Positions 799-52,284 of a stretch of 64,000 nt of DNA are shown one piece after another (positions within the stretch are counted from its first letter, which is position 1; each line of letters begins with the position of its first letter). Position numbers and translations under genes: made by a program. This stretch comes from Candidatus Omnitrophota bacterium (GTDB lineage: Bacteria; Omnitrophota; Gorgyraeia; 2-01-FULL-45-10): positions 331 to 64,330 of the forward strand of contig JAFGJL010000010.1 of the NCBI GenBank assembly GCA_016929115.1. Direction: 5' to 3'. The notes beneath the pieces were generated by a model, which was given only the letters and a program-made list of their open reading frames with translations, was not told where the DNA came from and searched no databases.

Positions 799-2238
799 TT
801 AATATGCGATTTCATACTTCCCTTTTCTCTTCTTCCTTTTAAGAAGGCCGAGGCCTTTCAGCGTATCCTTGACAAGGTCCTCGAAGGCCTTCCAGTAGTA
901 CCGGTGGTATTTCAACGCGTCGACGAGCGCTAGAGTCGAAAGCGGCTTTCTCTTATCGAGCGCGTCATGGAAGATATTGAGGGCCGTCTTTGAGTTCTCC
1001 GCGGTGAATATCTTCCAGTGGTAATCGGTCAGCCAGAAATCGTCGTCGATAAAGCCTATCTTCTTGGCATGCTCGTACAGCTCAGTACCGGGAAGGATCC
1101 TTAGCCCGTTCGCGAGCCCCACCTCATCCGGCCCTGTCCTGTTCAGGAAATCGATCGTTTCGTTTATAGTTCGCCTGGTCTCGCCGAGATTGCCTACTAT
1201 GAGGAGGGCGGATGTCCTTATGCCCATCGTCTTCGTCATCACTATCGCCTTCTCCGAAATCCCGACGTCGACCTCTTTATGCATCTTTTTCAAGAGTTCC
1301 GGCGAGGCCGATTCTATACCGAAGCATATCTTGAAGCAGCCTGCCTTTTTAAGGGCGGCCAAAAGGTCCGGGTCGATGCAATCTGCGCGCGATACGATCT
1401 CAAAAGTTATCCTCAGCCCGCGCCGCGTTATCTCTTCGGCCACCTCTTTTGCCGCGCGTCGGTCCGCCGTGAAGAGGTCATCGTTAAAATTGAAGCGTTT
1501 GGCGCCGTATGTCTTATTGAGCATCTCGATCTCATCGACCATGTTCTTAGCGGACCTGCGGCGCCACCGTTTCCACAGGAGTTTGTCGGCGCAGAATACG
1601 CAGCGTCCTATGCATCCGCGCGAGAATACCACCGGAACGCACGGCTCGGCGGCGAGATCGATACCGTTATATCTACCGGACCCTTCGGGCGGATATTTGC
1701 CGATGTCGATCAGTTCCCACGCGGGGAACGGCACATCATCAAGGTTCGCGATAAGTGGCCGCTCGGGGTTCAAGCGGACTTCTTTGCCTTCCCGATAAGC
1801 TATACCCTGAATGTCTTTCAAGTCCTTGCCCTGGCACATCTCCAGAAAGGTGATCTCGCCTTCTCCCCTCGCCACAATATCGACGAACGGGTAGTGCTCG
1901 AGAAGTTGCCGAGGCATCAGCGTGGCGTGGGCGCCGCCCAGGACGACGAGCGTCTTCGCGTCCGCCTTTTTGACCGCCTCCGCCACTTTAAGCGCCTTAA
2001 CGCGGGAATAGGTGTGGCATGTGATACCGACGATCGTGGGTCGGTACTCCCTCATCTTCTTCTCTATTCCGTCCCATCCGGCGATGTAACCGTCGATAAG
2101 ATCGACGGGGATAGAGTTCTTCTTCAGCACCGCCGCAAGATATAAAAGCCCCAGAGGCGGCGTCGAATAGTCACCCCGTCCTGATTCCGGAGGGTTTATG
2201 AGGAGGACTCTTTGCATAACTCCCTGTATTTTGCCCAC
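799..2238 (-). CDS. Cobalamin-binding (class B) radical SAM enzyme
   Basis: The N-terminal B12-binding Rossmann region is LLINPPE...PPLGLLYLAAVLKK...VGITCHT. The radical SAM CX3CX2C motif is GCIGRCVFC. Length is 479 aa. Confidence 0.8.
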   Translation of the reverse strand: MGKIQGVMQRVLLINPPESGRGDYSTPPLGLLYLAAVLKKNSIPVDLIDGYIAGWDGIEKKMREYRPTIVGITCHTYSRVKALKVAEAVKKADAKTLVVLGGAHATLMPRQLLEHYPFVDIVARGEGEITFLEMCQGKDLKDIQGIAYREGKEVRLNPERPLIANLDDVPFPAWELIDIGKYPPEGSGRYNGIDLAAEPCVPVVFSRGCIGRCVFCADKLLWKRWRRRSAKNMVDEIEMLNKTYGAKRFNFNDDLFTADRRAAKEVAEEITRRGLRITFEIVSRADCIDPDLLAALKKAGCFKICFGIESASPELLKKMHKEVDVGISEKAIVMTKTMGIRTSALLIVGNLGETRRTINETIDFLNRTGPDEVGLANGLRILPGTELYEHAKKIGFIDDDFWLTDYHWKIFTAENSKTALNIFHDALDKRKPLSTLALVDALKYHRYYWKAFEDLVKDTLKGLGLLKRKKRKGKYEIAY

Positions 2239-2969
2239 TTAAGGAAATTTATGAACGCGAACAATACGGCGAATAGAAGCCCGTAAAACCCTTCCCTGTA
2301 GCCCTTCTTCTTGAAATACGCCTTCCAGAATATCTTGAATGAGCGGCCCATCATCTCTTTGCGGATCTTCTTCTCGCTCAAAACGCCTTTTTCCTTCAAT
2401 AAGTCTTTTGCCGCGATATCCGTATAGCGGTTCTGCCTGTTTATGAACTGGCTTATCGAATCGAAAGGGTAGTGCTCGATATCCGCCTCGATCGTGCCCA
2501 TCGCGCCTTTATAGACGGGCACCTCATGGACCTCGCCCTCGAAACGGACGAAGCGCCTGTTGAGGAAGTTCGGGATATAGTGACTCCACCCGCCATTCTC
2601 CATCGCGTGCCCGAGGAAGAAGTTCTTCCGGCGGAATTTGTATATTACGGTATCGCCCTTGTTTTGCGAGAGCGCATCCTCCGCCTTGAGGCGGAAACCA
2701 TCGGTCACGATGTCGTCCGCGTCGAGCGTCAGGACCCAGTCATTGCGGGCATTGTCATTGCCGACGTTACGGTCGTCGGCAAAGGCGCCCGTGAACTTGT
2801 GCGGCACTACCTTCGCGCCGTAGCCCTTCGCTATCTCGACCGTCTTATCGGTCGAGAGGCCGTCCACGACGATGACCTCGTCGACCCACCTGATCGACTC
2901 GAGGCACTTCGCGATGCGTTTTTCTTCGTTCTTCGCGATAATTACGGCTGATATCTTCGGCGCGCTCAT
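2196..2969 (-). CDS. GT2 family glycosyltransferase (WaaE/KdtX-like)
   Basis: MSAPKISAVIIAKNEEKRIAKCLESIRWVDEVIVVDGLSTDKT...LTLDADD. The start is set at the internal ATG at 2969, which forms an ATGA overlap with the upstream stop. The 358-aa N-terminal extension in the ORF track would overlap the whole upstream gene and is rejected. This is a paralog of 2966..3742. Confidence 0.75.
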   Translation of the reverse strand: MSAPKISAVIIAKNEEKRIAKCLESIRWVDEVIVVDGLSTDKTVEIAKGYGAKVVPHKFTGAFADDRNVGNDNARNDWVLTLDADDIVTDGFRLKAEDALSQNKGDTVIYKFRRKNFFLGHAMENGGWSHYIPNFLNRRFVRFEGEVHEVPVYKGAMGTIEADIEHYPFDSISQFINRQNRYTDIAAKDLLKEKGVLSEKKIRKEMMGRSFKIFWKAYFKKKGYREGFYGLLFAVLFAFINFLKWAKYRELCKESSS

Positions 2970-3742
2970 ATCTTCGGCTGGTTTTTCTCGTTCTCCAGCA
3001 TCTCCCAATATTTCACATAACTCATGAACTGGTAGGCGGCGCCGGCCCAGGAGACGATGAACCCGAGGAAGCCGTCCTTGAAGCCGCCTTTCTGGATATA
3101 CGCCTTGATAAAGCGGCTCGCCCCCTTGCGGTACATCTTGATGAAGTTTATCCTGCGCCTTTCCTTGAACCATTTCTTCGCCTCGAGAGTCGTCTGATTG
3201 TTCAGGCTCTGGAAAAAGTCGTGGAAGTCGCGGTACGAATAGTGGATGATGTCGCCTTTCAGGTGCCCGCATGTGCCGTCGATGAACACCCTGGGATGTA
3301 CCTCGGCTTCTTCATACTTGAACGAGCGCCGCTCAAAGAGCCGTACCTTCGGCGCCGGATACCAGCCCGCATGCCTGATCCAGCGCTTGCCGATGTACGT
3401 CTTTATCGGGATGGTGTAGGCCTTGTGCGGCTCAGGCCCGGCCTTGAATAGGCCGGCTAGTTCCGCGATGATCTCGGGACTTATACGTTCGTCAGCGTCA
3501 AGGCTCAGCGCCCAGTCGTTCCTGGCAAGGCTATAGGCGTAGTTGCGGTGCCTTCCCTCGATGTCCATCTTGCGCGAAAATACCTTGTCGGTGTAGCGCT
3601 TGGCGACCTCAACGGTCTTATCCGTAGAATTGTCGTCGAGCACGATCACCTCATCGCATCCTTGCGCGCTCTTCAGGCACTCCGCAATATTCTCTTCCTC
3701 ATTCTTCGTAATCACTACAACCGATATAGGTATTTTGTCCAT
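2966..3742 (-). CDS. GT2 family glycosyltransferase (WaaE/KdtX-like), paralog of the downstream gene
   Basis: ISVVVITKNEEENIAECL...VIVLDDNSTDKT...LSLDADE. The C-terminal half with KGGFKDGFLGF is shared with the neighbouring paralog. Confidence 0.8.
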   Translation of the reverse strand: MDKIPISVVVITKNEEENIAECLKSAQGCDEVIVLDDNSTDKTVEVAKRYTDKVFSRKMDIEGRHRNYAYSLARNDWALSLDADERISPEIIAELAGLFKAGPEPHKAYTIPIKTYIGKRWIRHAGWYPAPKVRLFERRSFKYEEAEVHPRVFIDGTCGHLKGDIIHYSYRDFHDFFQSLNNQTTLEAKKWFKERRRINFIKMYRKGASRFIKAYIQKGGFKDGFLGFIVSWAGAAYQFMSYVKYWEMLENEKNQPKI

Positions 3743-3761
3743 TATCTTTCCTTATTTTGAG

Positions 3762-3799
3762 ATTCCACCTACGCGGTGTTAACACCGCGTAGGTGGAAT
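3762..3799. repeat. Perfect 38-bp palindrome (attccacctacgcggtgttaacaccgcgtaggtggaat) centred on GTTAAC
   Basis: Checked base by base. It occupies almost the whole 63-nt gap between the stop of the GT2 triplet (3806) and the start of the GT2 pair (3742). No T-run follows it on the coding strand. Confidence 0.85.
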
Positions 3800-3805
3800 T
3801 ACCCG

Positions 3806-4825
3806 CTAATAATACTGTATCTTCGCCTTGTGAATGAACGAGAATTGCTCGAGCACCTTGCCGAAGCGCTCGTCGTCGACGAATATCCTGTCGAACTTCT
3901 TCTTCTTTTTCAATATGTTGAACAATACCGCCAGATGGAAGCGCTCGGACGGCATGCTCTTCACGATGATGTTCGAATGCCTCGGCGCGTCGAACGGCCC
4001 CTTCGAGAAGCACCAGACCCAGTTGCCGCCGCGCGCCAGTTTCATGAACTCGTTATTGACGTGGTTCAGCGTCAGGTCATCGAACGAGTCGAGCACGTAC
4101 GCCACGCGCGCTGGCCTGCCCCACCTGAACTCGTATATCTCCTTGTTGCGCTTAAAATCCTCTTCGAACGTCTTTGCCTTGTTGAACGAGCCGTGTTCCC
4201 TGTGGTACACATAGGCGCCGCACGCGCGGACGCATTTAAAACCTTCCCTAACGGCTTTGCGCGAAAAATCCGTGTCCTCGAAGTTGCCCATGCCGTATAT
4301 CTCGTCGAAATAGCCTATCTTCCCGATCACGGCCCGCGTTATGAGCATGCAGAAGCCGATCGCCGCGCCCAGTTCGACGTAAGCGCCGGCCTCTCTTCGG
4401 AGCTTCTCGGCATAAAGCTCGACCGGCTCGCCGGGTTCAGGCCTTTGGCCGAGATTGTTAGAAGACGGGTTCACAATGCCTATATCGGCCGACTTCTCCG
4501 CGATGGCGATCATTTCGCCGAGCCATCCTTTAGTCACGAGAGTATCATTGTTCAAAAGACAGACATAAGGCGCGCTTGACGCGCGCATACCCTGGTTCGC
4601 GGCCTTTACGAATCCGGTGTTCGCCTCGTTCCGGATGAGAAGCACCTTGTCGCCGTGCGACTTCGCAAGCGACTCGAGATAACTCTTCGTCTTCTCCTCG
4701 CTCGCGTTATCGATGAAAACGATACGGTACTCCGCGCCGGTATATTTAAAGATGGAATCGACGCAGTCGGCGGTAAAAGCGAGCTGGTTCCAGACAGGTA
4801 TTATTATGTCGCACTTCGCGCTCAT
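3806..4825 (-). CDS. GT2 glycosyltransferase with about 110-aa C-terminal extension (triplet member A)
   Basis: MSAKCDIIIPVWNQ...FIDNASEE...NNDT...FEDTDFS. The start is set at the ATG at 4825, which forms a verified ATGA overlap with the upstream stop. The track ORF extends to 4873. Confidence 0.75.
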   Translation of the reverse strand: MSAKCDIIIPVWNQLAFTADCVDSIFKYTGAEYRIVFIDNASEEKTKSYLESLAKSHGDKVLLIRNEANTGFVKAANQGMRASSAPYVCLLNNDTLVTKGWLGEMIAIAEKSADIGIVNPSSNNLGQRPEPGEPVELYAEKLRREAGAYVELGAAIGFCMLITRAVIGKIGYFDEIYGMGNFEDTDFSRKAVREGFKCVRACGAYVYHREHGSFNKAKTFEEDFKRNKEIYEFRWGRPARVAYVLDSFDDLTLNHVNNEFMKLARGGNWVWCFSKGPFDAPRHSNIIVKSMPSERFHLAVLFNILKKKKKFDRIFVDDERFGKVLEQFSFIHKAKIQYY

Positions 4826-5868
4826 GGTTGATCCGTTTTCGCGATCGCGTCGATTATATCGACGACGCGGCATTCGTCCTTATCCGCGTTGAAATAATAG
4901 ACTTTCGGCCTGACTTTCGAAAGTACCTGGCAGAGCACCGCGTCATCCGTAAAGACGGCGGCGTAACGCTTCGTCTTCTGCTTTGTCCAGTTCAGGCCCA
5001 GAAAGAACGGCGCGATGACCGCGGTGACAAGCCCCGGCCACTTCTTGTAACGTATGTTTATATGCTCCAGGCCTGCCCTGGCAGCGCCGTTCCACACATA
5101 GACGATGTGCTGTCGCCTGGCGAGCGACAGCAATATATCGAAGAAGCGCCTGTCCCTCGCCTTTGTCATGACGAAGGCGACGTTAAGGCGCCTGCCCCAT
5201 TTCTTGTAGAAGAGCGCCTTGTTCTTCTCGTGGAGCTCGAGCCGCTCGGCCTCCGCGAAAATATCCTTGAATGTGGAATCGCGCAGATGCTCGACATAGA
5301 CATCGTTCGCCCTCACGCACTTAAAGTGGGCGCGCAGCGCCCGCACCGAGAAGTCATCGTCGTCATAGTAGCCCAGGCCGTAACCCTCATCAAGGCCGCC
5401 GATCTTTTCGAGCACTTCCCTTTTTACAAGGATGCAGTAACCACGGCAGAAATCCACCTCGATATAGGGCTTATCCGACCGCTGCCTTACCTTCACCTCG
5501 AACCTCGGGTTCACGAGACCTATATCCGGTTCTGTCGCGGCAACGGCGAGGAGCTTCGAAAGCCAGCCCTTCGTATGCACAACAGTGTCGTTGTTCATGA
5601 CGCAGATGTACGGTGTTGAGGAAAGTTTTATGCCCTGGTTGACCGCCTTCACCCAGCCGAGATTCTCATCGTTGCGCACCAGGATAACGTTACCGTTGGA
5701 GCGCTTGAAATCCTCGAGAAATCCTTTTATTTCGCCTTTCGAACCGTTATCTATCAGGATGAGCCTGTACGGCGCGGTCGTGTTGGCTTGGATGCTCTCG
5801 AGGCAGTTCTTCGTGAGCTCCAGTTTGTTGTATACGGGAATGATGATGTCGCACTGCGCATCAGGCAT
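4822..5868 (-). CDS. GT2 glycosyltransferase with C-terminal extension (triplet member B)
   Basis: CDIIIPVYNKLELTKNCLESI...LIDNGS...MNNDT...YDDDDFS. It overlaps the next gene by 8 nt (ATGCCTGA). Confidence 0.75.
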   Translation of the reverse strand: MPDAQCDIIIPVYNKLELTKNCLESIQANTTAPYRLILIDNGSKGEIKGFLEDFKRSNGNVILVRNDENLGWVKAVNQGIKLSSTPYICVMNNDTVVHTKGWLSKLLAVAATEPDIGLVNPRFEVKVRQRSDKPYIEVDFCRGYCILVKREVLEKIGGLDEGYGLGYYDDDDFSVRALRAHFKCVRANDVYVEHLRDSTFKDIFAEAERLELHEKNKALFYKKWGRRLNVAFVMTKARDRRFFDILLSLARRQHIVYVWNGAARAGLEHINIRYKKWPGLVTAVIAPFFLGLNWTKQKTKRYAAVFTDDAVLCQVLSKVRPKVYYFNADKDECRVVDIIDAIAKTDQP

Positions 5869-7033
5869 ATTTTTTACGCTTCTCTTTTATGGAGAGGGCC
5901 GCCTCCTTCCCTCTTTCAAGCCAATCGTCGCATTCATCCTGCACCGAAAGCCGTTCGACGAAGGTATTGACCGCCCTCGCGCAAATAGCGAGCGGCCCGG
6001 CCACGGCATCGTCCAGTATCACGACCGCGTCGAAGCGCTTGTCGCGCATCCTTTTGCGGATCCGCTCGACGAGTTTGCCCGAGAGCGTCAGGCCGAAGAG
6101 CGGCTTCGGCAGATTGAAACGGTCGATCCTTATGTTCTGGTGCGGCGCCAATCCCTTTTTCGCCAAAACGGCCATCACCATCTCATCCAGCTTCTTGGCG
6201 TCGGCCGCCGTGTTTACCCAAAGATGGACCCATGTCCATTCCCGCGCGAGACCATAGGCCAGCAGGACCGCCTTTTGCAGCGTCATGGCATCATTGGCAG
6301 CGATAGAGACGGCCAGGCCGATGCGCAGGTGCTTGCCCCACTTTTTATAATAGATCTTCTGGTTACGCCTGACCCAATGCTCGCGGTTACCCGCCTTATC
6401 GAACGACGCATGGATGCGGTGGTAGACGTAGGCGTCATGGATGGCGACGGAACGGTAGCCGGCATTGTGGGCCCGCATCGAGTAATCGGTATCATCATAG
6501 CCGCCGATGCCGAACGCCTCGTCGAGATACCCTATCTTATTGATAAGGTCGCGCTTTATGAGCATGCAGAAGCCCTGGCACTGGTTCATCTCCATGTACT
6601 TGCCCTTGTTCTTCGCCAGCTCCTCCGCGTACGCTTCTATCGCCTTATCGCGGTGCCCGCCGCATACGGGGTTGATGAGGCCCACATCGTCGTGGCTCGC
6701 GGCAAAGTCTATCATGCGCTCGAGCCATCCCGGTCCGGGTATCGTGTCGTTATTGAAGACGCAGATATAAGGCGCGTCCGACAGCTTCATGCCCTGGTTG
6801 ACGGCTCTTACGAACCCCGCGTTCTCGTTGTTGCGTATTAGCCGCACATCGATCTCCTTGCCCAGCGCGCCCGGCTTCGCGATACCTTCGAGATATGCCC
6901 TTGTCTCGGCGTCGCTCGCGTTATCGATCAGGATGAGCCTGTACGGATACGCCGTGTTCCTGACGATATGCTCGACGCACTGCTTAGTGTGGTCGAGCTG
7001 GTTCCATATGGGTATGATGATGTCGCATTTCAT
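5861..7033 (-). CDS. GT2 glycosyltransferase with C-terminal extension (triplet member C)
   Basis: MKCDIIIPIWNQLDHTKQCVEHI...LIDNASD...FNNDT...YDDTDYS. Length is 390 aa. Confidence 0.75.
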   Translation of the reverse strand: MKCDIIIPIWNQLDHTKQCVEHIVRNTAYPYRLILIDNASDAETRAYLEGIAKPGALGKEIDVRLIRNNENAGFVRAVNQGMKLSDAPYICVFNNDTIPGPGWLERMIDFAASHDDVGLINPVCGGHRDKAIEAYAEELAKNKGKYMEMNQCQGFCMLIKRDLINKIGYLDEAFGIGGYDDTDYSMRAHNAGYRSVAIHDAYVYHRIHASFDKAGNREHWVRRNQKIYYKKWGKHLRIGLAVSIAANDAMTLQKAVLLAYGLAREWTWVHLWVNTAADAKKLDEMVMAVLAKKGLAPHQNIRIDRFNLPKPLFGLTLSGKLVERIRKRMRDKRFDAVVILDDAVAGPLAICARAVNTFVERLSVQDECDDWLERGKEAALSIKEKRKKYA

Positions 7034-7039
7034 AGTCGT

Positions 7040-7125
7040 TAGCCATGTTTAGCGTTTAGCGTGGAGCGTATAGAGAAAAATCCCCACCCTATACGCTAAA
7101 CGCTATCCGCTATACGCTAATTCAT
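7040..7125. repeat. Intergenic dyad element built from 7-nt periodic AGCG / CGCT repeats
   Basis: The left arm is tttAGCGtttAGCGtggAGCGtatag. The right arm is ctataCGCTaaaCGCTatcCGCTataCGCTaa. They are separated by gaaaaatccccaccc. It lies between the B12-rSAM stop (7133) and the GT2-triplet start (7033). Confidence 0.7.
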
Positions 7126-7132
7126 GCGCTCC

Positions 7133-8464
7133 TTATATAATACGCTGTAAAAAGTGCTTTATACGCCGCTCGATTATAAAATCGGCTTTCCGCGCGAGAC
7201 GGACGGATACGAAACGCTTTTTCGATTCGACAAGGGCTTCCTGCAGGAATTTGTAGTCGATCCCCTTTATCTTGGGCGCGTTCGGCGAACGGGCGAAGTC
7301 CGAATGCGACCTTATGAGCGACAGGCCGTTCTTGACGCAATAGTCGTAAAGGTCGCTTCCCGGATGGGGCGTGAAGAACGCGGGGCTCGGCCGGTAGGGC
7401 TTTATCTTCTGTATCATCCTTACCGTGTCCATCGCCTCCTCTTTCGTCTCGGTCGGCATGCCGAGCATGTAATTCGCCCATATCCGGACGCCGTGCTTTT
7501 TGCAGATCCTCGCGGCGCGATAGTTCATCTCAACCGTAGTCCCCTTGCGCAGGAAATTCAAAACGCGCTGGTTGCCGCTCTCGAAACCTATCAAGTACAT
7601 CGCGAGGCCGGCCTTCTTCATCAACCGGACCATATCCTCGTTCTTGCAGATTATATCGGCCCTTGACTGGCAAACGAACGGCTTCCGGAACTTGCGTCTC
7701 CTGTATTCGTCGCAGAACCGGATCACCCATTTGCGGTCCTCTGTCAGGCAATCGTCATGGAACATGAAACTCTGGAAGTCGTATCTTTCCCTCAAGAGCT
7801 CCAGCTCATCTATGACATTGGCCACGCTCCTTCGCCTGACTTTACGGCCGAATATCTTCCGCTCAGCGGGCTGGCAGAAGCTGCAGTTGTAGACACATCC
7901 GCGGCCCGCTATCACCGTGACGAAGGGCCGCCTCAGGAAATTCTCGATCGGTGATTCCTTGAAGCGGAAGAGCTCGCGATCGGCGAACGGCAGCGTGTCA
8001 AGGTCGGGATGCTCGCCGGTGATGACTCGCTCGCGCGGCCTGCAGTTCTCGATATCCTCGAGCAGTTTAAGGAAGGTCGTTTCGCCTTCGCCGACGACAA
8101 CGTAGTCGATGTTCGCGCCGGCCGCCACCTCCTCAGGCAGGATGCTCGGATGAGGCCCGCCGGCCACCACGACGATGTTCCTGTCGACTGATTTCGCGAT
8201 GCGCGCCGCCTCCATCGCCGGTTCGTAATCGACGCTCATCATCGTGACGCCGAGGACCTGCGGCTTAAGCCGCGATATCTCGCCGCGCACATCATCCCAG
8301 CCGGCAAGTTCCCTGAGGTCAATAAGGCTTACGTCGTGGCCCACCGCCTTGGCGCAAGCGCTCAAGGACGAAAGGCCGTGGTTCATCCAGCTGTATTCGA
8401 CCGGCGCCTTCGCTGTGTTGAACCCGGTCTCAGATATCCCCGGGAATACGAGCGTGACTCTCAT
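7133..8464 (-). CDS. Cobalamin-binding (class B) radical SAM enzyme
   Basis: N-terminal B12-binding region (VTLVFPG...VLGVTMMSV...VVVAGGPHPS). The CX3CX2C motif is GRGCVYNCSFC. Length is 443 aa. Confidence 0.8.
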   Translation of the reverse strand: MRVTLVFPGISETGFNTAKAPVEYSWMNHGLSSLSACAKAVGHDVSLIDLRELAGWDDVRGEISRLKPQVLGVTMMSVDYEPAMEAARIAKSVDRNIVVVAGGPHPSILPEEVAAGANIDYVVVGEGETTFLKLLEDIENCRPRERVITGEHPDLDTLPFADRELFRFKESPIENFLRRPFVTVIAGRGCVYNCSFCQPAERKIFGRKVRRRSVANVIDELELLRERYDFQSFMFHDDCLTEDRKWVIRFCDEYRRRKFRKPFVCQSRADIICKNEDMVRLMKKAGLAMYLIGFESGNQRVLNFLRKGTTVEMNYRAARICKKHGVRIWANYMLGMPTETKEEAMDTVRMIQKIKPYRPSPAFFTPHPGSDLYDYCVKNGLSLIRSHSDFARSPNAPKIKGIDYKFLQEALVESKKRFVSVRLARKADFIIERRIKHFLQRII

Positions 8465-9542: not shown

Positions 9543-9544
9543 AT

Positions 9545-43673: not shown

Positions 43674-44524
43674 GTCCTCCCGCCGTCTATCACGACATTT
43701 GCCCCGGTCATATAGGAAGAAGCGTCGCTGACCAGGAAGACGACCGCGGCTTCGTATTCATCGCTCTTGGCCATGCGTCCCATAGGTATCAGATCCGTAA
43801 GCTTGCTGACGAACCCGGCCGGTTGGTTCTTATAAACTCCACCGGGAGATATGGAATTCACCCGTATGTTCTTACTTGCCCAGTAGGTAGCGCAATATTT
43901 GGTAAGCCCTATAAGGCCGTGCTTGACCACAGAATAAGTGACGGGCTTAGCGGGTTGCCCGGTTTCCGGCAGCCCTTTTTTGCGGTATATCCTCTGATCA
44001 GGCGCTATGACGCCCAGATCCGAAGAAACGTTCAGCATGACCCCGCCGCCGTGTCCGGCAAAATAGGATCCCACGACCTGGCTGCAGATAAACGCTCCGG
44101 TGAGTCCGACGGAAATATCTTTTTCCCATGACTCAAGTCCGAAGTTCTCCAGTCTGCTTCCGGCAAGGCTATCGCTTTTTTCCACCTTCGGGTTATGGGC
44201 CGCGTTATTTATGAGTATATTGGCCTTTTTGAACCTGCGGATAACCGCCGAAAGCGCGTCCTTGACGCATTTCTGATCCCTGATATCCACGGCAAAACCT
44301 TCGCATCTGACGCCGCAGGATCTATTGATATCCTGGGCGGCTTTCTTCACGGCCTTTTCGTCTATATCCCATAACACCGGTATCCCGCCCGCTTCGCCTA
44401 CCGCCTTGGCGTGCCTGCGCCCTAAAAAGCCAGCGCCGCCCGTGATGATAGCCACTTTACCCCCGAGCCTGAATCTATCAAGTGTTTTCATGGTGATCCT
44501 TTTATCTTTAGGCCATCTCTTCAA
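43664..44524 (-). CDS. Classical short-chain dehydrogenase/reductase (SDR)
   Basis: VAIITGGAGFLGRR, NNAA and YSVVK (YxxxK). The start may be the ATG at 44491. Confidence 0.75.
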   Translation of the reverse strand: MKRWPKDKRITMKTLDRFRLGGKVAIITGGAGFLGRRHAKAVGEAGGIPVLWDIDEKAVKKAAQDINRSCGVRCEGFAVDIRDQKCVKDALSAVIRRFKKANILINNAAHNPKVEKSDSLAGSRLENFGLESWEKDISVGLTGAFICSQVVGSYFAGHGGGVMLNVSSDLGVIAPDQRIYRKKGLPETGQPAKPVTYSVVKHGLIGLTKYCATYWASKNIRVNSISPGGVYKNQPAGFVSKLTDLIPMGRMAKSDEYEAAVVFLVSDASSYMTGANVVIDGGRTCW

Positions 44525-45875
44525 AACACTCTTCGTAAACTCTCAGCCCTTCCACAAGCGCGCTTTCTGGTATCGTCAAGGGCGGGCCGAGTTTTATTGT
44601 CCCGCGCCCGGTGCATATCGAGAAGACGCCTTTTTCCATGGCCCGCTCAACGATGCGGTTCGTGAAGTCTATATCGAGCTCGTCAGAATTCTTCTTTGTG
44701 ACGAAGACGCCGAAGAGCATGCCCTTACCCAGGATACGGCCGATCCGGCCGGGAAACCGCTTTTTCAATCTGGCGAGCTCCCTGGTGATTACAGCTTCTT
44801 TCCGCTTCGATACGGCCACTAGATCGTCCTTTTCGAACGCCTCCAGATTGCCCAGTCCGGCCGCGCATACCAGCGGATGCCCGCCGTGCGTGCTGGTATA
44901 GGTCGGGTCAAGCTCGATCAGGCCGGCGCCTCCCAATACGGCCGAAAGCGGCAGGCTCGACGAGATCGCCTTACCGCAGATAACCATATCGGGCTCCACG
45001 CCGTAGTGCTCGTAGGCGAAAAATTTGCCCGTCCTGCCGAAACCCGCCTGTATCTCGTCAAATACCAGAAGCGACTTGTTCTCTTTGGACCACTTTCTCA
45101 TCGTCTTTATATAATCTACCGGATAGAAGACCGCTCCCCATCCCTGGAACGATTCGACAAAGAACGCGGCGATCTCGTTCAGTTTAACGCCGCCCTTTTC
45201 AAGGTCTTTCAAATGCTTAAAGAAGAGAGCTTCCCCCCTCAACCCGGATCTTTCCAATGCCCATGGATAAGGGAACGGCATATGAACCATGTTCGGGTCG
45301 AGGTAGCCTATCCATTTCTTTCCGTCATGCTGGCCGCCTGCCATCTGGGAGCCCATCGTCTTGCCGTGGAAATTCCCCTCTCCTCCGACGATAACTGCCT
45401 TCCGTGGCGTGAACTGCATGCCGTAGTACCGGGCCAGCTTTATCGCCCTCTCGCTGGCCTCTGTCCCGGAACTGAATAATGACGCCTTCTTCAGGTAAGA
45501 AGGCGTCATTGAAATGAGCTTTTCCAGGAATGCCGCCCTTATGGGGGTAGGATAAGAATAGCTATGGAGAAGCGGCTTGTCCAACTGCTCCTTGACGCGC
45601 TTTATTATACGGCTATTGCCGTGGCCGGCATTGGTAACAAAAATGGACGACGTGAAGTCTATCCATTTGTTCCCCCAGGAGTCAAAGACCTGGTATCCTT
45701 CGGCATGGTCCCATATCACAGGCAACTGGTCCATCACGTTGGAGGACTCGTACTTTTTGATCTTTTTCAGCAGTTTCAGCGACTGTGGCACCGGGATCTT
45801 AGTTTTGATGCAACGGTACTTTGTAAGCACTTTCGGAACGGCTCGCGGCGTCAGGTTGAACTTAAAACCACTCAT
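44508..45875 (-). CDS. Class III PLP-dependent aminotransferase
   Basis: DEIQAGFGRTGKFFA and ICGKAISSSLPLSAV (Schiff-base lysine region). Length is 455 aa. Confidence 0.8.
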   Translation of the reverse strand: MSGFKFNLTPRAVPKVLTKYRCIKTKIPVPQSLKLLKKIKKYESSNVMDQLPVIWDHAEGYQVFDSWGNKWIDFTSSIFVTNAGHGNSRIIKRVKEQLDKPLLHSYSYPTPIRAAFLEKLISMTPSYLKKASLFSSGTEASERAIKLARYYGMQFTPRKAVIVGGEGNFHGKTMGSQMAGGQHDGKKWIGYLDPNMVHMPFPYPWALERSGLRGEALFFKHLKDLEKGGVKLNEIAAFFVESFQGWGAVFYPVDYIKTMRKWSKENKSLLVFDEIQAGFGRTGKFFAYEHYGVEPDMVICGKAISSSLPLSAVLGGAGLIELDPTYTSTHGGHPLVCAAGLGNLEAFEKDDLVAVSKRKEAVITRELARLKKRFPGRIGRILGKGMLFGVFVTKKNSDELDIDFTNRIVERAMEKGVFSICTGRGTIKLGPPLTIPESALVEGLRVYEECFEEMA

Positions 45876-45920
45876 CTTTACACCTCTTTCTTTGATCTTA
45901 TCGTTGCCGAATATGCTGAA

Positions 45921-47009
45921 CTAACGACTCCTGGACATTTCCGGGACGTTCATCTCTCTTGTCGTAGGGACATAGCGCTTAGCTTGCTCAATATCCTTCC
46001 CGGATGACGTCAGGGTATACTTGACGGATAAGTATAGGGCGGAATCCATGACCTTTTCGCCCACACGTATCTCCTTTAAAATCAGGGCCCTGCCTCCGGC
46101 GATAACCCTGACATACCGGTCGTCCAATATAGTAACGATCTTGCCGTTACAAAAAGGATGGAATTCCTGCGAGACCGATGTGTCGATATAGCTGTCCAGG
46201 ATATGCACCTTTTGGCCGTTGTAATAGGTATAGGCTCCCGGATAAGGGACGCTGAACGCCCTTATGAACCGTTCGACCGAGTTGATATCCCAATCCCAGT
46301 TTATGATGCCGTTCTGCTCCGTATAAAGGCGCGGATAATAAAAGCTTTTGTTGTGGTCCTGGGGCCTGGCGGGAACGGGATCCTCCTTTAAAAGAATGTC
46401 GAGAAACCCGCTCAGGAGCTTCTTGCAATTGTCCACTTCCGCGATCAGGTAATCGACCGGCTTGGGGTGATCCTTTTTTATGGCGACGCGGCCCTGGAGG
46501 ATCACGTCTCCGCTGTCTATGCCCTCGTCGAGATAATGGACGGTGTCCCCTACCGTGTTGATGCCGTTCAGGATGCGCCAGGTATTCAACGCCCCTCCCC
46601 TTTCATCCGGCAGATACGAGTCATGGATATTGAAGATCTGCCCCTTGAAATAGTCGATTATCATCTTCTTTATGATATTGCGGCAGCTCGTCGAAAAGCC
46701 GATATTGCATTTATGCCCGGACAGGATCTCGATAGCTTCGTCGCAATTGACGTTCTCCATCTTGTAGATCCTGACCAACCCACGGCTGGCCAGGGACTCC
46801 ATGTCCCCGCAAAGCCCGTAAGGGGTCAGGAGCTTTTTATCCCTCATGTATTCTTCGTCCGGAGAGACGATCGCGACAGGCGGCGGGAATCCGCGCGCGT
46901 GCAATTCCTTGATCAGATGGTCTGTATAGACGATCCTGCCGAAAATGGCGAATTGAAAGTCCTTGGGCTGTTTCACGTTTGCGTCCTTTGGGTTAAAGGC
47001 TCCACACAC
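45921..47009 (-). CDS. Formyltransferase-family protein (sugar N-formyl/acyl transferase, Fmt N+C domains)
   Basis: NIHDSYLPDERGGA matches the HxSLLPxxRG formyltransferase motif. There is a C-terminal Fmt_C-like domain. Confidence 0.7.
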   Translation of the reverse strand: MCGAFNPKDANVKQPKDFQFAIFGRIVYTDHLIKELHARGFPPPVAIVSPDEEYMRDKKLLTPYGLCGDMESLASRGLVRIYKMENVNCDEAIEILSGHKCNIGFSTSCRNIIKKMIIDYFKGQIFNIHDSYLPDERGGALNTWRILNGINTVGDTVHYLDEGIDSGDVILQGRVAIKKDHPKPVDYLIAEVDNCKKLLSGFLDILLKEDPVPARPQDHNKSFYYPRLYTEQNGIINWDWDINSVERFIRAFSVPYPGAYTYYNGQKVHILDSYIDTSVSQEFHPFCNGKIVTILDDRYVRVIAGGRALILKEIRVGEKVMDSALYLSVKYTLTSSGKDIEQAKRYVPTTREMNVPEMSRSR

Positions 47010-47796
47010 TGTTGGAGCCGACCGGTTCTTTCAAACGGGCCTCTCTTTTCAGGTTCTTGTAATTTGAGCAAAGATGATCATAGACGGGATGTTTCTGGTT
47101 CGCCAGAAAGAAGTTCAGCTTCCTGAAATCGTCCGGTCCGTCGACTTCGCCCGTGTCGGGAGTCATGAAGGCCAGCATCCTCGGTCCGTAACACGATCTA
47201 TAGCGCTTCAGGGTGTGCGTTTTGATGATATCGACATACCCGTTACCGAAATATGCGGGCGGGAAAGCCTGTCTGGGAAGCGTAAAATATTCCGGTCTGG
47301 GATCGAAGGGACACAGGCCCTGCAGATAACCGTCATGCATGCCGAACATCTTCCCTGGCGGCTCTTCGATCTCATGCACGGAAACGAGGCTGGTCGACTC
47401 CGGCCTGCTTTTTATGTACGAGACGGATTCGCTGAGCAGCGCCGGGTCACGAAGCGGGGTCGTGGGGCGTATCTGGACCCAGTATTCAGGCGCATAGTTC
47501 TCGTTCTGCTCAAACCAGCCCAGGGCATGCTCGATGACTTCCTTATCCGTTGAATTGTCCCTGGCGAATTCGGCCGGCCTCATAAAAGGCACTTCGGCAC
47601 CAAAAAGTTTCGCGATCTCCGCGATCTCTTCGCTATCCGTTGAAATGATGGTCCTTTCTATATTCTTGGCCAGCTTGCATGCAACCACTGAATACGCTAT
47701 TAAAGGAAAGCCACCGAGATCGCGTATATTCTTTTTGGGCACTCCCTTTGAGCCGCCGCGGGCTTGTATCAACGCGATCACATCGCTTTTTTTCAT
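46993..47796 (-). CDS. Acylneuraminate cytidylyltransferase family (third CMP-sugar synthetase)
   Basis: ALIQARGGSKGVPKKNIRDLGGFPLIAYSV. Length is 267 aa. Confidence 0.8.
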   Translation of the reverse strand: MKKSDVIALIQARGGSKGVPKKNIRDLGGFPLIAYSVVACKLAKNIERTIISTDSEEIAEIAKLFGAEVPFMRPAEFARDNSTDKEVIEHALGWFEQNENYAPEYWVQIRPTTPLRDPALLSESVSYIKSRPESTSLVSVHEIEEPPGKMFGMHDGYLQGLCPFDPRPEYFTLPRQAFPPAYFGNGYVDIIKTHTLKRYRSCYGPRMLAFMTPDTGEVDGPDDFRKLNFFLANQKHPVYDHLCSNYKNLKREARLKEPVGSNSVWSL

Positions 47797-47808
47797 TGCT
47801 CTCTTCTC

Positions 47809-49152
47809 CTAATTGGAAACAGCATTACGTTCGCGCAGGCCTTTAAAGACAGGCGAACCCGGTTTGCATCTAAGGAATTTTGCGATATCGTCGCCGCTCT
47901 CCACGGCGTTCTTTATGACGACGCAGGCCTTGTCGAACGAGTCGATGAAACAATCAAGGTCTTCGCGCGAATGTGAGTAAGAGAGCATGAGGACCCCCGC
48001 AAAGCAGAGTATGCCCTCCTTGAACATCTCCTGTTGGTAAAGCGTTGCGAGGTTAAGGTTGTGGATGCCGTTTGAATCGTGCGTATTGACCATGAGCCGC
48101 ACCGGATATCCCGCCAGGGAAACGTTTTTACCGACCCCGTGCCTGTCAATGATAGCCCTGAGCCCCTTCTCCAGATATTCTCCTTTCTCCCATAATTTTG
48201 CGATCACATCATTTTCCTTATAAAAATCTATCACCGCTGAAGCCGCGGCCAATGTCAATGCTTCAGGCGCGTAGGTGGAGGAGAGAAAGGCCTTGTCAAA
48301 ATTTTTCATGTATTTCCTCTTCCCCGCGATAACGCCCAGAGGCATGCCGTTCGTTATGCCTTTGCCGAATGTCGCGAGGTCGGGCACCACATTAAAGAAC
48401 TCCTGCGCCCCTCCCATCCTGAAGCGGAAACCCGATATCATCTCGTCGAATATGAGGAGCGCGCCGTTCTCGTGAGCCAGCGCCTTGACCTTGTTCAGGA
48501 AATCGTCCTTTGGTTTTTCCGCTATCACCGGCTCCATGATCACGGCGGCCACACGGCCGTGGTACTGCTCGAACATCTTACTTAAACCGCTTATGTCGTT
48601 ATACCGGAAAGACTTGGTGAGCTCGCGCACGCATTTGGGGACACCGGCGTTGCGGTCCGTAGAGCCGATATACCAGTCCTGGAAGCCGTGGTAGCCGTAA
48701 CATAATATCATCTCTTTTCCTGTAACGGCCCTTGCCAGCCTCACGGCCGCCGCGCACACATCGCTGCCGTTCTTGGAAAATTTGAGCATCTCGGCACACG
48801 GAATGCATTCAACAAGCTTTTCGGCCACCTCCACCTCCAGCGGATTGAGCAGGCTGAAGAGTATGCCTTTATCCATCTGTTTTTTTATGGCCTCATTGAT
48901 GGGCTCGTAATTATGCCCCAAGGTGGTCGGCCCGCACCCCATTACCATGTCGATAAACTCGTTGCCGTCAACGTCCCAGACATGGGAACCCTTCTGCCGG
49001 ATGACGTATTTCGGCGCGGCACCGTCCGGAAAGACGCCCGGGGACCTGCTGAATGTCTGAGTGCCAGTAGCTATCACCTTGAGCGCTCTCCGCCATAATT
49101 CGTCGCTCTTCTTGATGCCGTACCTCAAGCCAAGTTTTTTGTTTGCTGACAT
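47809..49152 (-). CDS. Class III aminotransferase, glutamate-1-semialdehyde aminomutase-like
   Basis: FDEMISGFRFRMGGAQEFFNVVPDLATFGKGITNGMPLGVIAG (HemL-like signature). Length is 447 aa. Confidence 0.8.
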   Translation of the reverse strand: MSANKKLGLRYGIKKSDELWRRALKVIATGTQTFSRSPGVFPDGAAPKYVIRQKGSHVWDVDGNEFIDMVMGCGPTTLGHNYEPINEAIKKQMDKGILFSLLNPLEVEVAEKLVECIPCAEMLKFSKNGSDVCAAAVRLARAVTGKEMILCYGYHGFQDWYIGSTDRNAGVPKCVRELTKSFRYNDISGLSKMFEQYHGRVAAVIMEPVIAEKPKDDFLNKVKALAHENGALLIFDEMISGFRFRMGGAQEFFNVVPDLATFGKGITNGMPLGVIAGKRKYMKNFDKAFLSSTYAPEALTLAAASAVIDFYKENDVIAKLWEKGEYLEKGLRAIIDRHGVGKNVSLAGYPVRLMVNTHDSNGIHNLNLATLYQQEMFKEGILCFAGVLMLSYSHSREDLDCFIDSFDKACVVIKNAVESGDDIAKFLRCKPGSPVFKGLRERNAVSN

Positions 49153-50032: not shown

Positions 50033-50061
50033 ATTATACTAACGTAGCACTATCTTGTCAA
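50033..50061 (-). promoter_or_regulatory. Consensus sigma70-type promoter TTGACA-N17-TATAAT, followed by an AGAGGA Shine-Dalgarno and the ATG at 49994
   Basis: The minus strand reads TTGACAagatagtgctacgttagTATAAT (-35 at 50061..50056, -10 at 50038..50033), verified base by base. The SD is aatAGAGGAtaatATG. Confidence 0.5.
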
Positions 50062-50084
50062 GGCAAAAATGGGGATGATCGGGA

Positions 50085-50831: not shown

Positions 50832-50847
50832 CCTTATCCCCTTCTCT

Positions 50848-52284
50848 CTATTCGCTGAGCCCGAGAAGCGCTCCGGCCGCTCTCCAATAATACTTTATAT
50901 CTTCAACAGACCGTATGCTCATGAGGTTAGCCATGATCACCTTCGGGGATGTGTAAAATTTCAGATACGCCTTTTTATAGTATTTTAACAACCTTTCTTT
51001 CCCCAGCTGCGGGTTCACGTATATCGGGTTGGAAAAGTCCGTGGAGGTGTAGTCATCCCAGGCGACGCCTTGCCTCAATCCCCCGTCGATCCTGCATTGC
51101 TCCAGAAGCTCCGTTCCCGGAAAAGGCACCGGAAGGTAGAATATCGCCGTATGCGTCGCGAGCTTCCTGGCAAAATCGATCGTATTCTCCACTTCCCTTG
51201 ACGTCTCGCCGGGGAACCCTAATATATATGAAGCGTATACTTGTATGCCTGCCTTTTTTACCGCGTTGACCGCCCTGACGACCTGTGCCGGGGTCTGGTT
51301 CTTCTTCATAAGTTTAAGCGATGATTCGTTCGCTGACTCAACGCCAAAGACTATCTGCCAGCAACCGGCCTTCTTCATTAGCCGGGCGAGATCTTCATCT
51401 ATCTGGTCCACCCTCGCGTTGCACATCCAGGACAGGTCATACCTTCCTTTAATAAGGCGCTCGCAGAATTCAACAACATATTTCCTTGAAGTCAGAAAAC
51501 TTGAATCTTGGATAAAGAAACCCCTGGCCCTGTGCTCTCGTATCAGGTAATCCATCTCCTCGAATATCTTATCGAGCCCTTTCATCCTCAGTTTCCTGCC
51601 GTGGATCTTGGAGGCGGAGCAGAACGTGCACTGGTACGGGCATCCCCGCGTCGTCAGTAACGGATAGCTCGGGAGCCTTTTATATTGAGTAGAGTGCGGA
51701 AAGTACTTGTCAAGCTTCAGCAGGTCGTATGCCGGCATCGGCAATATATCCAGGTTCGCGATCGGATGGCGCAGCCTTGTCATCTTCACGGCTGTGCCGT
51801 CCCTGTAAGCGATGCCGTTGATCTCTTCCAATTTCATGCCTTTGCCCGATCTCCAGTCGAGTACATCTAAAAAAGTGAGTTCCCCCTCGCCTATCACGAC
51901 CATATCAGCTGCCGGGCACTCCGACATCGTCTTTTCAGGAAGGACCGTAGCATGAACTCCTCCCAGGACGACCAAGGATCCGGGCAATGCTTTGCGCACG
52001 ATATTGGCAGTCTTGAACGTGTAACCAGCTGTGTTCGTAAAACAAGGCATTCCGACGACATCGTAATTCTTGGACTTCAGATGCTTCTCCAAATCGTCGT
52101 CGCGCATGCCCTCCACGCCGGTATCGAATATTTCGACGCTATATCCCTTCTCCCTGATATAGGCGGCTATGGAAAGCATGCCTATAGGAGGCACAAAACC
52201 TCCTCCCCTGTGGAACTTGCCCCACAGGACCCTGAAAGGGACTATCGGATGCAAGAGAAGTATCTTCAAGCCTATTTTTTCCAC
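50848..52284 (-). CDS. Cobalamin-binding (class B) radical SAM enzyme
   Basis: The B12-binding N-terminus is KILLLHP...PIGMLSIAAYI. The CX3CX2C motif is TTRGCPYQCTFC. Length is 478 aa. Confidence 0.8.
   Translation of the reverse strand: MEKIGLKILLLHPIVPFRVLWGKFHRGGGFVPPIGMLSIAAYIREKGYSVEIFDTGVEGMRDDDLEKHLKSKNYDVVGMPCFTNTAGYTFKTANIVRKALPGSLVVLGGVHATVLPEKTMSECPAADMVVIGEGELTFLDVLDWRSGKGMKLEEINGIAYRDGTAVKMTRLRHPIANLDILPMPAYDLLKLDKYFPHSTQYKRLPSYPLLTTRGCPYQCTFCSASKIHGRKLRMKGLDKIFEEMDYLIREHRARGFFIQDSSFLTSRKYVVEFCERLIKGRYDLSWMCNARVDQIDEDLARLMKKAGCWQIVFGVESANESSLKLMKKNQTPAQVVRAVNAVKKAGIQVYASYILGFPGETSREVENTIDFARKLATHTAIFYLPVPFPGTELLEQCRIDGGLRQGVAWDDYTSTDFSNPIYVNPQLGKERLLKYYKKAYLKFYTSPKVIMANLMSIRSVEDIKYYWRAAGALLGLSE

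Follow-up and report, generated by a model that had tools for sequence, protein, structure and literature searches.

Results

We analysed a 64,000-nucleotide stretch of a Candidatus Omnitrophota genome (GenBank assembly GCA_016929115.1, contig JAFGJL010000010.1, positions 331 to 64,330 of the forward strand), which we call the window, and which carries a group of radical S-adenosylmethionine (SAM) genes set among genes for glycan synthesis. A first-pass annotation, made from the letters alone, had placed eight radical SAM open reading frames (ORFs) here, and all eight are present on the minus strand, as are all of the 56 consecutive genes of the window. The largest gap between genes is 163 bp. 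If at most 3% of genes are assumed to encode radical SAM proteins, the Poisson probability of eight among 56 is ~4e-4, which puts their number far above expectation. The run of genes continues upstream past window position 64000. By the best explanation, the window is the greater part of an island of cell-envelope glycan genes, at least 66 kb long and encoded on one strand, in an uncultured Candidatus Omnitrophica (Omnitrophota).

Six of the eight proteins (B1 to B6) have the architecture of class B (B12-type) radical SAM enzymes, as had been claimed: each matches the B12-binding domain PF02310 (40-80 bits; gathering cutoff 32.1) and the Radical_SAM domain PF04055 (62-97 bits; cutoff 29.5), and each contains exactly one CX3CX2C motif, located between residues 190 and 240. 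GG and GEGE motifs are invariant across all six. The DxHxxG motif is absent from B1-B6, but class B enzymes are generally not known to carry it, so its absence is uninformative. The six are only 23-32% identical to one another, because of which we regard them as old paralogues; the same figure rules out a recent tandem duplication. The closest named relatives of B1, B4 and B6 are from Omnitrophota.

B1 (799-2238; PF02310 79 bits, PF04055 72 bits; CX3CX2C at residue 209) sits within an array of family 2 glycosyltransferase (GT2) genes and is likely to start at the ATG at 2217, while B2 (7133-8464; PF02310 76 bits, PF04055 72 bits) lies between a GT9 gene and that array. For B3 (28297-29799; PF04055 62 bits, PF02310 40 bits) the longest ORF reaches 29835, its start overlapping the stop of a 393-residue protein and its end overlapping the start of an ABC exporter; the ATG at 29799, already chosen in the first-pass annotation, is the best start because it retains the conserved first beta-strand. 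B4 (34769-36163) is a member of a highly conserved class B-type family, to which we return below. Its start is overlapped by 4 nt by the stop of B5 (36160-37746; PF04055 77 bits, PF02310 50 bits), a protein with an N-terminal extension that is 100% identical to an NCBI entry from a Candidatus Omnitrophica metagenome-assembled genome (MAG). B6 (50848-52284), of a glycosyltransferase-associated type, is located 3' of a double GT4 gene and 5' of a transglutaminase-like gene.

The other two proteins, S1 and S2, had both been credited with the cysteines of a SPASM auxiliary-cluster domain. This holds in full for S2 (39974-41320; PF04055 79 bits, PF13186 25.1 bits, cutoff 21.5), which is encoded between two CMP-type cytidylyltransferase genes and carries the complete CX2CX5CX3C motif, CKACEMFDECNGGC, at residue 321; its PDB sequence matches are PqqE (60 bits) and, weakly, BlsE (35 bits). 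S1 (24435-25415) also matches PF13186 (61.5 bits), but lacks CX2CX5CX3C and has a reduced set of C-terminal cysteines (C248, C266, C311, C314, C318) that appear more like those of a 'twitch' domain. Its best PDB sequence match is BtrN (66 bits), making S1 a candidate BtrN-like anaerobic sugar dehydrogenase.

Annotation of all 56 products with Pfam and NCBIfam bears out the claim that these genes are interleaved with those for glycosyltransferases and sugar-nucleotide enzymes. There are seven GT2 enzymes, several GT4/GT1 enzymes, one GT9 and three GT-C-type membrane enzymes (PMT_2, YfhO). Assembly and export are represented by a Wzy_C membrane protein (PF04932), a WecA-type initiating transferase (PF00953) and an ABC exporter; the Wzx/Polysacc_synt flippase of a Wzy-dependent O-antigen or surface-polysaccharide locus was not found within the window, beyond which the island extends; the ABC exporter and an unannotated protein with nine transmembrane (TM) segments are present instead. 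For ulosonic acids the window encodes two synthases of the short NeuB type, a HAD phosphatase and three cytidylyltransferases of the CMP type, one of them as a fusion with a methyltransferase. Further tailoring is represented by two class III aminotransferases, a formyltransferase, a short-chain dehydrogenase/reductase, a polysaccharide deacetylase and eight or more methyltransferase domains of the class I or TylF type. On one side or both, each of the eight radical SAM genes overlaps its neighbour or is separated from it by no more than 20 nt. This arrangement would be compatible with the translational coupling proposed earlier.

The principal new finding concerns B4. Its relatives are ~462 residues long, and nearly all of the 120 listed are 62-72% identical to it; those named among them come from Omnitrophota, Nitrospirota, Thermodesulfovibrionales, Phycisphaerae, Bacillota and Vulcanimicrobiota MAGs. 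Identity within the family across six phyla is 55-72%, and an alignment of 68 relatives has a mean column identity of 75% with more than 100 invariant columns. The fetched loci had nothing at 35-50% identity, which gave the appearance of a clean gap around the family. This was refuted by an exhaustive search of representative sequences, in which two full-length representatives at 58-59% are followed by a graded halo of ~20 at 40-55% and then by a continuum, with 51,668 representative clusters matching B4 in all. Judged by these identities, the core of the family is compact but not isolated. No B4 orthologue was found in a cultured organism: identity reaches no more than 30% in plasmid hits and is 25% in phage hits, and the NCBI members are MAG-named or nameless. 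The representatives matching B4 also include giant proteins of 1,800-2,600 residues (P0383, P0390, P0393, P0412, P0415, P0422, P0453, P0464 and P0466), each with two to four class B radical SAM-like stretches; in a 2026 preprint, giant proteins of Omnitrophota are described as carrying radical SAM domains and domains for sugar metabolism.

We surveyed the neighbourhoods of B4 orthologues in 80 metagenome loci (55-65% identity to B4), assigning neighbour classes by phmmer with queries from the window and four annotated loci; metagenome contigs are short, and all counts are lower bounds. Where at least 6 kb of flank was available, a NeuB, CMP-transferase or Epimerase_2 gene was present in 34 of 43 loci, and 26 of the 43 had at least three enzyme classes of nonulosonic acid (NulO) biosynthesis. 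This contrasts with loci of the B6 type, only 5/70 of which had any NulO marker and 1/70 three or more classes. NulO genes almost always run in the same direction as B4 (184 of 186), and a CMP-type cytidylyltransferase, most often the nearest neighbour class, is found within 10 kb in 39 of the 80 loci.

Individual loci make the association concrete. In one (L105) five products score above curated cutoffs, namely LegB (538 bits against 475), LegC (556 against 420), NeuC (489 against 236), NeuB (498 against 400) and a NeuD/PglB acetyltransferase (242 against 161), after which come a PtmE-like transferase, a CMP-transferase, a PtmA-like dehydrogenase and then the B4 orthologue; this is a legionaminic-type operon of the LegB/LegC kind. 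A Bacillota locus has its B4 orthologue between a PglD-type acetyltransferase and a NeuB with SAF domain, beside an Epimerase_2 gene and upstream of flaG and fliD. In a Vulcanimicrobiota locus a full legionaminic-like gene set precedes the B4 orthologue, which is followed by three more B12-type radical SAM genes and a SPASM radical SAM gene. An Omnitrophota relative (L090) keeps the window's own order of TylF, B4, PFTS protein, HAD, CMP-transferase and NeuB. Since a NeuB-type synthase and a CMP-transferase are common to these contexts, they serve as a pointer to a (CMP-)ulosonic-acid core as the substrate of B4.

Other genes recur beside B4: flippases, a class IV aminotransferase, a HisH/HisF-like pair and, as the two largest partner families of unassigned function, proteins of ~400 residues without a Pfam match. 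The HisH/HisF-like glutamine amidotransferase and cyclase adjoin B4 orthologues in 7 and 6 loci, respectively (for example L122:9244-9933, L105:12656-13522 and L087:16761-18181); in NulO or O-antigen clusters such pairs are usually tied to the formation of acetimidoyl groups. One of the two families includes the conserved soluble 393-residue protein whose stop overlaps the B3 start (29796-30977), which has no Pfam, NCBIfam or PDB sequence match. Its homologues (29-47% identity; members include L088:11597-12811, L126:11974-13206, L128:6778-8010 and L090:20163-21395) occur in 12 B4-orthologue loci, often directly downstream of B4, and the protein may be a partner in function or a NulO transferase that has gone unrecognised. 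The second family, of ~408 residues, is encoded no more than 4 kb from B4 orthologues in 13 loci, including L161:7216-8439.

In the window, B4, B5 and S2 belong to an ulosonic-acid sub-cluster that differs from the legionaminic operons. Its two NeuB-family synthases (31958-32839 and 38450-39307; PF03102 222 bits each) are short forms without the C-terminal SAF domain, and both miss the NeuB_NnaB equivalog (TIGR03569, cutoff 399.65), at 230 and 223 bits, respectively. The cytidylyltransferases are a CTP_transf_3 protein (39313-39987), the fusion to a class I SAM methyltransferase (41320-42663), which is kept in L090, and a PseF-like enzyme (46993-47796; PF02348 79 bits, PseF 126 bits against a cutoff of 206). 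The HAD phosphatase (43182-43673) is of the KDN-9-P/KDO-8-P phosphatase type (105 bits for KDN-9-P phosphatase, cutoff 180; 87 for the KdsC subfamily, cutoff 107), and would indicate a route through phosphorylated intermediates, not the legionaminic route. Among the 56 products there is no LegB (TIGR04180; best 152 bits, cutoff 475) and no LegC (TIGR04181, cutoff 420), no aminotransferase being of the DegT/LegC type. Directly 3' of B4 is a weakly matching PFTS-motif polysaccharide biosynthesis protein (32820-34757; TIGR04417 32 bits; PF27878 is annotated on the exact-match contig), an adjacency kept in L090 and L101. A TylF-type sugar O-methyltransferase (37767-38426; PF05711 83 bits) lies upstream of B5 and B4, and its counterpart directly precedes the B4 orthologue in L090. 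Around the PseF-like gene, two class III aminotransferases and a formyltransferase (44508-49152) are candidates for amination and N-formylation steps. A small MarR/ArsR-like helix-turn-helix protein (42671-43222; weak Pfam match) has a 64% identical counterpart at the same position in L090 and may be a pathway-specific regulator. B5 has a 63% identical orthologue in a NeuB/flippase/SPASM locus of another Omnitrophica MAG (L171:19292-21030), where split transketolase subunits and genes of the heptose pathway accompany two SPASM radical SAM genes, a gene content that hints at two-carbon branched or higher-carbon sugars.

B1, B2 and B6 keep different company. The five-GT2 array (2196-7033) is followed upstream by B2 and by a block (8430-11850) that encodes a GT9 heptosyltransferase-like enzyme (PF01075), the Wzy_C protein (O-antigen ligase/polymerase-like, with twelve predicted TM segments) and the WecA-type polyprenyl-phosphate sugar-1-phosphate transferase. 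An Omnitrophota MAG (L017) has an orthologue of B1 (71%) and the same order of GT9, five GT2, B1 and GT2, with identities of 51-80% over a stretch corresponding to window positions 25-9542 (the GT2 at 25-723 through the GT9 at 8430-9542). No orthologue of B2 is found at the matching position, so we consider B2 to be accessory; a 52% identical orthologue is present in a Chloroflexota MAG (L064). Upstream of B6 are the double GT4 gene and two GT-C-type membrane glycosyltransferases (PMT_2 and YfhO; 52272-58353). An orthologue of B6 (66-67%) occurs with three more B12-type radical SAM genes, a SPASM radical SAM gene, PMT_2, GT2 and a flippase (L082), and a 46% identical relative from a Syntrophales MAG with two B12-type genes (L084) lies beside a CMP-transferase, methyltransferases and a GT2.

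A second census covered 80 B6-type loci from bacterial and archaeal GTDB species representatives, nearly all of them MAGs. A glycosyltransferase homologue is present within 10 kb in 47 of the 80, at least two B12-type radical SAM genes in 46 and at least three in 30. As an internal control, the 2.5 kb closest to the radical SAM gene have a glycosyltransferase density of 1.2 per 10 kb, and the interval at 7.5-10 kb has one of 0.26 per 10 kb, a 4.6-fold drop. Two natural fusions, confirmed with Pfam, join the functions in one chain: P0323 (812 residues) combines a B12 domain, a radical SAM core and a GT4, and P0092 (693 residues) a class I methyltransferase, a B12 domain and a radical SAM core. 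The tie to glycan genes, which the first-pass annotation had made to hang on co-conservation with glycosyltransferases in related genomes, survived this comparison by way of co-conservation, synteny and fusions. The annotation's statement that surface-polysaccharide loci normally contain no such enzymes holds for model organisms only, given these counts and the similar clusters on plasmids of Lawsonia intracellularis and Solidesulfovibrio carbinolicus.

These comparisons bear directly on whether the co-localisation means anything at all. Radical SAM genes are abundant in the MAGs of anaerobes and might have been gathered by chance or horizontal transfer in a hypervariable island: class B enzymes are very numerous (83,589 accessions; PMC12931638), as the number of clusters matching B4 also attests, glycan islands of Omnitrophota have been described as hypervariable cargo regions (2026 preprint), and B2 is missing from the syntenic L017. 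Chance would not account for the fall in glycosyltransferase density away from the radical SAM genes, the contrast between B4 and B6-type loci in NulO content, the shared direction of NulO genes and B4, synteny at 51-80% identity, the stop/start codon overlaps or the fusion proteins. Chance co-localisation is strongly disfavoured, and we consider it extremely improbable.

The identity of the reaction is less easily approached. The NCBIfam matches that score highest are BchE, HpnJ and ApyD, with 104-208 bits where the cutoffs lie at 481-750. For B1-B6 the scores are 104-208 bits with BchE (TIGR02026, cutoff 481.35), 95-202 with HpnJ (TIGR03471, cutoff 577.6), 36-105 with the AprD4 family diol dehydratase (NF033070, cutoff 500) and 60-145 with the PhpK-family model (TIGR04479, cutoff 600). 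Membership of a TIGR04295-like B12 radical SAM family, suggested earlier, found no support (44-114 bits, cutoff 400). A phosphonate-glycan pathway of the PhpK/Fom3 kind was rejected, because the 56 proteins include neither a PEP mutase nor any other phosphonate enzyme.

AF2 models of B6 (pLDDT 95.9) and B4 (pLDDT 91.7) match the whole class B architecture, with AprD4 as the best or a near-best structural match and, by fold, the equal of the cobalamin enzymes. AprD4 and ArsL share the class B fold yet bind no cobalamin (PMC12931638), so fold alone cannot settle cobalamin use. By sequence, however, AprD4 aligns to the radical SAM core only, whereas the N-terminal Rossmann domain aligns to those of OxsB, MgmA, CysS, TokK and TsrM, including the GG and GEGE motifs. 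By this contrast, the cobalamin binding predicted for the B-type enzymes of the window from fold and motifs has moderate support.

It may be that the enzymes tailor the sugars of the locus but mostly do not methylate them, catalysing carbocyclic ring contraction, 1,2-diol dehydration, oxidation or epimerisation instead. HpnJ is within the top three NCBIfam matches of all six proteins, and HpnJ or BchE is the top match for five of them; HpnI, HpnK and HpnJ form a direct precedent (PMC13459092), and the window likewise encodes GT2 enzymes and a polysaccharide deacetylase. The non-methylating BchE, HpnJ and ladderane enzymes fall in the largest class B group, which is unexplored and in which they cannot be told from methylases (PMC12931638), and class I methyltransferase domains, eight or more of them, are already encoded in the locus. 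Set against this, the likeness to AprD4 is confined to the core, with N-terminal domains that align to cobalamin binders and keep GG and GEGE, the AprD4 and HpnJ scores are far below cutoff, and C-methyltransferases are by far the commonest characterised function of the class, every group with a characterised member including some (PMC12931638). We regard a mostly non-methylating set as rather unlikely. C-methylation would be the likeliest single outcome for most of the six, ahead of ring contraction or dehydration, with an even or slightly favourable chance for each. Of the radical C-methyl sugars first proposed, then, the class B architecture stands, while C-methylation becomes one of several chemistries in view of the BchE and HpnJ matches and the structural likeness to AprD4.

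Two further alternatives concern the kind of substrate. The B12-type enzymes might act on lipids (the polyprenyl carrier, a lipid anchor or membrane lipids, with HpnP/HpnR, ladderane-type and archaeal tetraether enzymes as precedents) and share only the envelope island with the sugar genes. Sub-threshold matches to HpnR and to TIGR04072, a 'lipid biosynthesis B12-binding/radical SAM protein' (at most 150 bits against 360), point this way, and the WecA-type transferase and GT-C enzymes show that lipid-linked steps are encoded. But the 56 genes include no squalene/hopene cyclase, fatty-acid or isoprenoid enzymes, and B4 tracks the soluble nucleotide-sugar enzymes of the legionaminic pathway, not lipid genes; for these two reasons we judge a lipid role improbable. 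In the same direction, no membrane segment was predicted in the radical SAM proteins checked (B1, B6 and S1), and a radical SAM-GT4 fusion exists.

Alternatively, some of the enzymes, for example B3, S1 and S2 together with the ABC exporter, might mature a ribosomally synthesised and post-translationally modified peptide (RiPP) or modify a protein that receives the glycan. The exporter gene, with fused transmembrane and ATPase domains (26507-28303; PF00664, PF00005), is directly 3' of B3, the transglutaminase-like gene adjoins B6, and there are sub-threshold matches to ApyD, rSAM_ocin_1 and SPASM peptide maturases. All RiPP models are nevertheless far below cutoff, the best structural relative of S1 is the carbohydrate dehydrogenase BtrN, and the neighbours in related loci are sugar enzymes. 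There is no precursor-like small ORF in the window, whose gaps do not exceed 163 bp and whose largest gap is only a promoter-like AT-rich stretch; with no room for precursor genes, a RiPP role is very improbable.

Some features of the window stand apart from these questions. In the region of the GT2 genes, B1 and B2, the gaps at 724-798, 3743-3805 and 7034-7132 (minus strand) contain very stable RNA hairpins without a U-tract, with free energies of -28.2, -34.0 (a perfect 17-bp stem) and -37.6 kcal/mol and z-scores of -4.3, -8.8 and -4.5, respectively; none of the shuffled sequences folded equally well. The hairpins are not classical intrinsic terminators; processing or stability elements or attenuators are possible roles. 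The 163-bp gap (20674-20836), the sole sizeable non-coding stretch of the 64 kb, is AT-rich and promoter-like, which suggests an internal transcription start, and the array probably comprises more than one operon. Besides the cytidylyltransferase-methyltransferase gene, two genes encode fusions, one of a sugar-1-phosphate nucleotidyltransferase and a GT2 (60193-61629; AglJ-like, 102 bits against a cutoff of 325) and the other of a GT1 and DUF218 (18805-20673). Two large overlaps are longest-ORF artefacts: the Wzy_C ORF (9545-11161) overlaps the WecA-type gene (10822-11850) by 340 nt and has its first TM segment at residue 128, and the GT2 ORF at 2196-3272 overlaps the next (2966-3742) by 307 nt, with a real start near 2960. 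Finally, the ORF at 63365-63985 is the C-terminal part of a 484-residue PMT_2 protein that leaves the window.

Discussion

The eight radical SAM enzymes are probably dedicated sugar-tailoring enzymes of an envelope glycan island. What the sequences show is their domain architecture, motifs, predicted fold and gene order, and that their genes are conserved together with those for glycans and nonulosonic acids; from this we infer what they act on, whether they use cobalamin and which reaction they catalyse. They do not form a single system; at least two groups can be told apart, one linked to nonulosonic acids and one to glycosyltransferases. In the first of these, B4 would most likely act at an unactivated carbon of a nine-carbon ulosonic acid, probably in its CMP-activated form. 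In other genomes its family usually follows a true legionaminic operon, and in the window B4 accompanies a KDN/KDO-like route with a HAD phosphatase. B5 and S2, in the same sub-cluster, probably share its ulosonic acid or act on a sister one. In the second group B1, B2 and B6, set among GT2, GT4, GT9 and GT-C enzymes, would most likely modify sugars of a nucleotide- or lipid-linked oligosaccharide on the cytoplasmic side; B3 is assigned here by position only. S1 would probably oxidise a sugar hydroxyl to a ketone without NAD. The chemistry can be sketched from what is established for the superfamily: the [4Fe-4S] cluster held by CX3CX2C would reductively cleave SAM to give a 5'-deoxyadenosyl radical, which would take a hydrogen atom off a carbon of the sugar. 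Where the enzyme depends on cobalamin, the N-terminal Rossmann domain would hold methylcobalamin, whose methyl group would then pass to the substrate radical; a second SAM would re-methylate the resulting cob(I)alamin.

On this basis we tentatively propose, at a little under even chances, that the B4 family is an unrecognised and widely conserved radical step in nonulosonic-acid biosynthesis, in which (CMP-)legionaminic acid or a related ulosonic acid is turned into a sialic-acid-like sugar that is C-alkylated or has another change in its carbon skeleton. Flagellins and glycans of the envelope would bear this sugar in many phyla of anaerobes (Bacillota, Nitrospirota, Omnitrophota, Planctomycetota and Vulcanimicrobiota), and the other class B enzymes of the island would add further radical modifications. 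Several observations weigh against our reading of the eight enzymes as dedicated sugar-tailoring enzymes. None of the eight enzymes reaches any curated NCBIfam cutoff, and the top matches, BchE and HpnJ, are non-methylating; moreover, methylating and non-methylating members of the class are indistinguishable by sequence or structure (2026 review; PMC12931638). Nine of the 43 well-flanked B4 loci have no recognised nonulosonic-acid gene, and one Phycisphaerae orthologue lies among housekeeping genes with NulO genes 6-10 kb away. The loci of the B6-type census are 28-37% identical to B6 and so represent family-level relatives, not orthologues, and B3, B5, S1 and S2 have little comparative support in the sampled loci.

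Nonulosonic acids (sialic, legionaminic and pseudaminic) are surface determinants important for motility, for host mimicry and for recognition by phage and the immune system. The pathways that make them count as well mapped, and to our knowledge no radical SAM step has been described in them. A conserved class B enzyme that ends legionaminic-type operons in many phyla implies an undescribed sugar derivative and a new enzymatic reaction. No paper that connects radical SAM or B12 enzymes with nonulosonic acids (legionaminic and pseudaminic acids included), with O-antigen or with polysaccharide loci came up in full-text searches, which did not cover subscription journals. The words polysaccharide and glycan are absent from a 2026 review of class B enzymes (PMC12931638). 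What we describe is a known enzyme class and a known pathway type in an undescribed, conserved combination. Clusters of radical SAM and glycan genes are widespread in anaerobic and uncultured lineages, which suggests that these lineages routinely diversify their surface glycans by radical chemistry. Class B comprises more than 80,000 sequences, the largest groups of which are without known function (PMC12931638); for one large and sharply conserved family among them, the B4 finding yields a concrete substrate hypothesis in CMP-legionaminic acid, which can be made enzymatically. If true, our reading of the B4 family and of the other class B enzymes would amount to a surface glycan chemistry without described counterpart.

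Among characterised enzymes, GenK and GenD1 (gentamicin) and MoeK5 (moenomycin) resemble the B-type proteins in combining a B12 Rossmann domain with a radical SAM core, in acting on carbohydrate and in being late tailoring enzymes encoded beside glycosyltransferases. They are listed as class B Csp3-methyltransferases (PMC12931638) and differ in belonging to actinomycete antibiotic clusters, not to cell-envelope glycan loci. The frequent position of B4 orthologues beside a CMP-type cytidylyltransferase, suggestive of a cytidylylated substrate, recalls fosfomycin biosynthesis. There, Fom3 is a class B C-methyltransferase that needs a CMP-activated substrate, although what it methylates is a phosphonate and not a sugar acid. 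Precedent for the remodelling of a glycolipid sugar by a B12-type enzyme comes from the glycosyltransferase HpnI, the deacetylase HpnK and HpnJ; HpnJ and calditol synthase (Cds) are associated with radical ring contraction of envelope-lipid sugars, the mechanism of HpnJ itself being unproven (PMC13459092). As in that system, the window encodes B12-type enzymes together with GT2s and a deacetylase, but it has no hopanoid genes, its proteins score 95-202 bits against the HpnJ cutoff of 577, and the reaction proposed for HpnJ is ring contraction, not methylation. AprD4 (apramycin), a cobalamin-free 1,2-diol dehydratase with a Rossmann-like N-terminal domain, differs in that its similarity is confined to the core, whereas the N-terminal domains of the window proteins align to cobalamin binders. 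For S1 the nearest comparison is BtrN (butirosin), which has a similarly reduced C-terminal cysteine pattern and a carbohydrate-like (aminocyclitol) substrate; the similarity is low and limited to the N-terminal half, and S1 is longer and matches the full SPASM profile.

At the level of gene clusters, the Campylobacter-type pathway to CMP-legionaminic acid (LegB, C, H, G, I and F with PtmE, F and A) is the closest relative of the B4 setting: B4 orthologues directly follow such operons, as in L105, and this gene order recurs in many loci. The window differs in having no LegB or LegC and a HAD-phosphatase route instead, and we know of no radical SAM enzyme in the legionaminic pathway as described. 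Lawsonia intracellularis plasmid 1 (L173, NC_008012), Solidesulfovibrio carbinolicus pDCAR1 (L174) and a phase-variable block of Campylobacter fetus carry radical SAM enzymes that are only 22-31% identical to those of the window and are annotated generically ('radical SAM protein', 'cobalamin-dependent protein'), yet these clusters share its design, with B12-type and/or SPASM radical SAM genes set among glycan genes (GT2, class I methyltransferases, cytidylyltransferases, and an MptE/Maf-like protein or a formyltransferase). On pDCAR1 the radical SAM genes lie beside the MptE/Maf-like protein, and in C. fetus they are of the SPASM type. With analogous clusters in cultured or cultivable organisms, Lawsonia and Solidesulfovibrio are possible experimental models for the combination of radical SAM and glycan genes described here.

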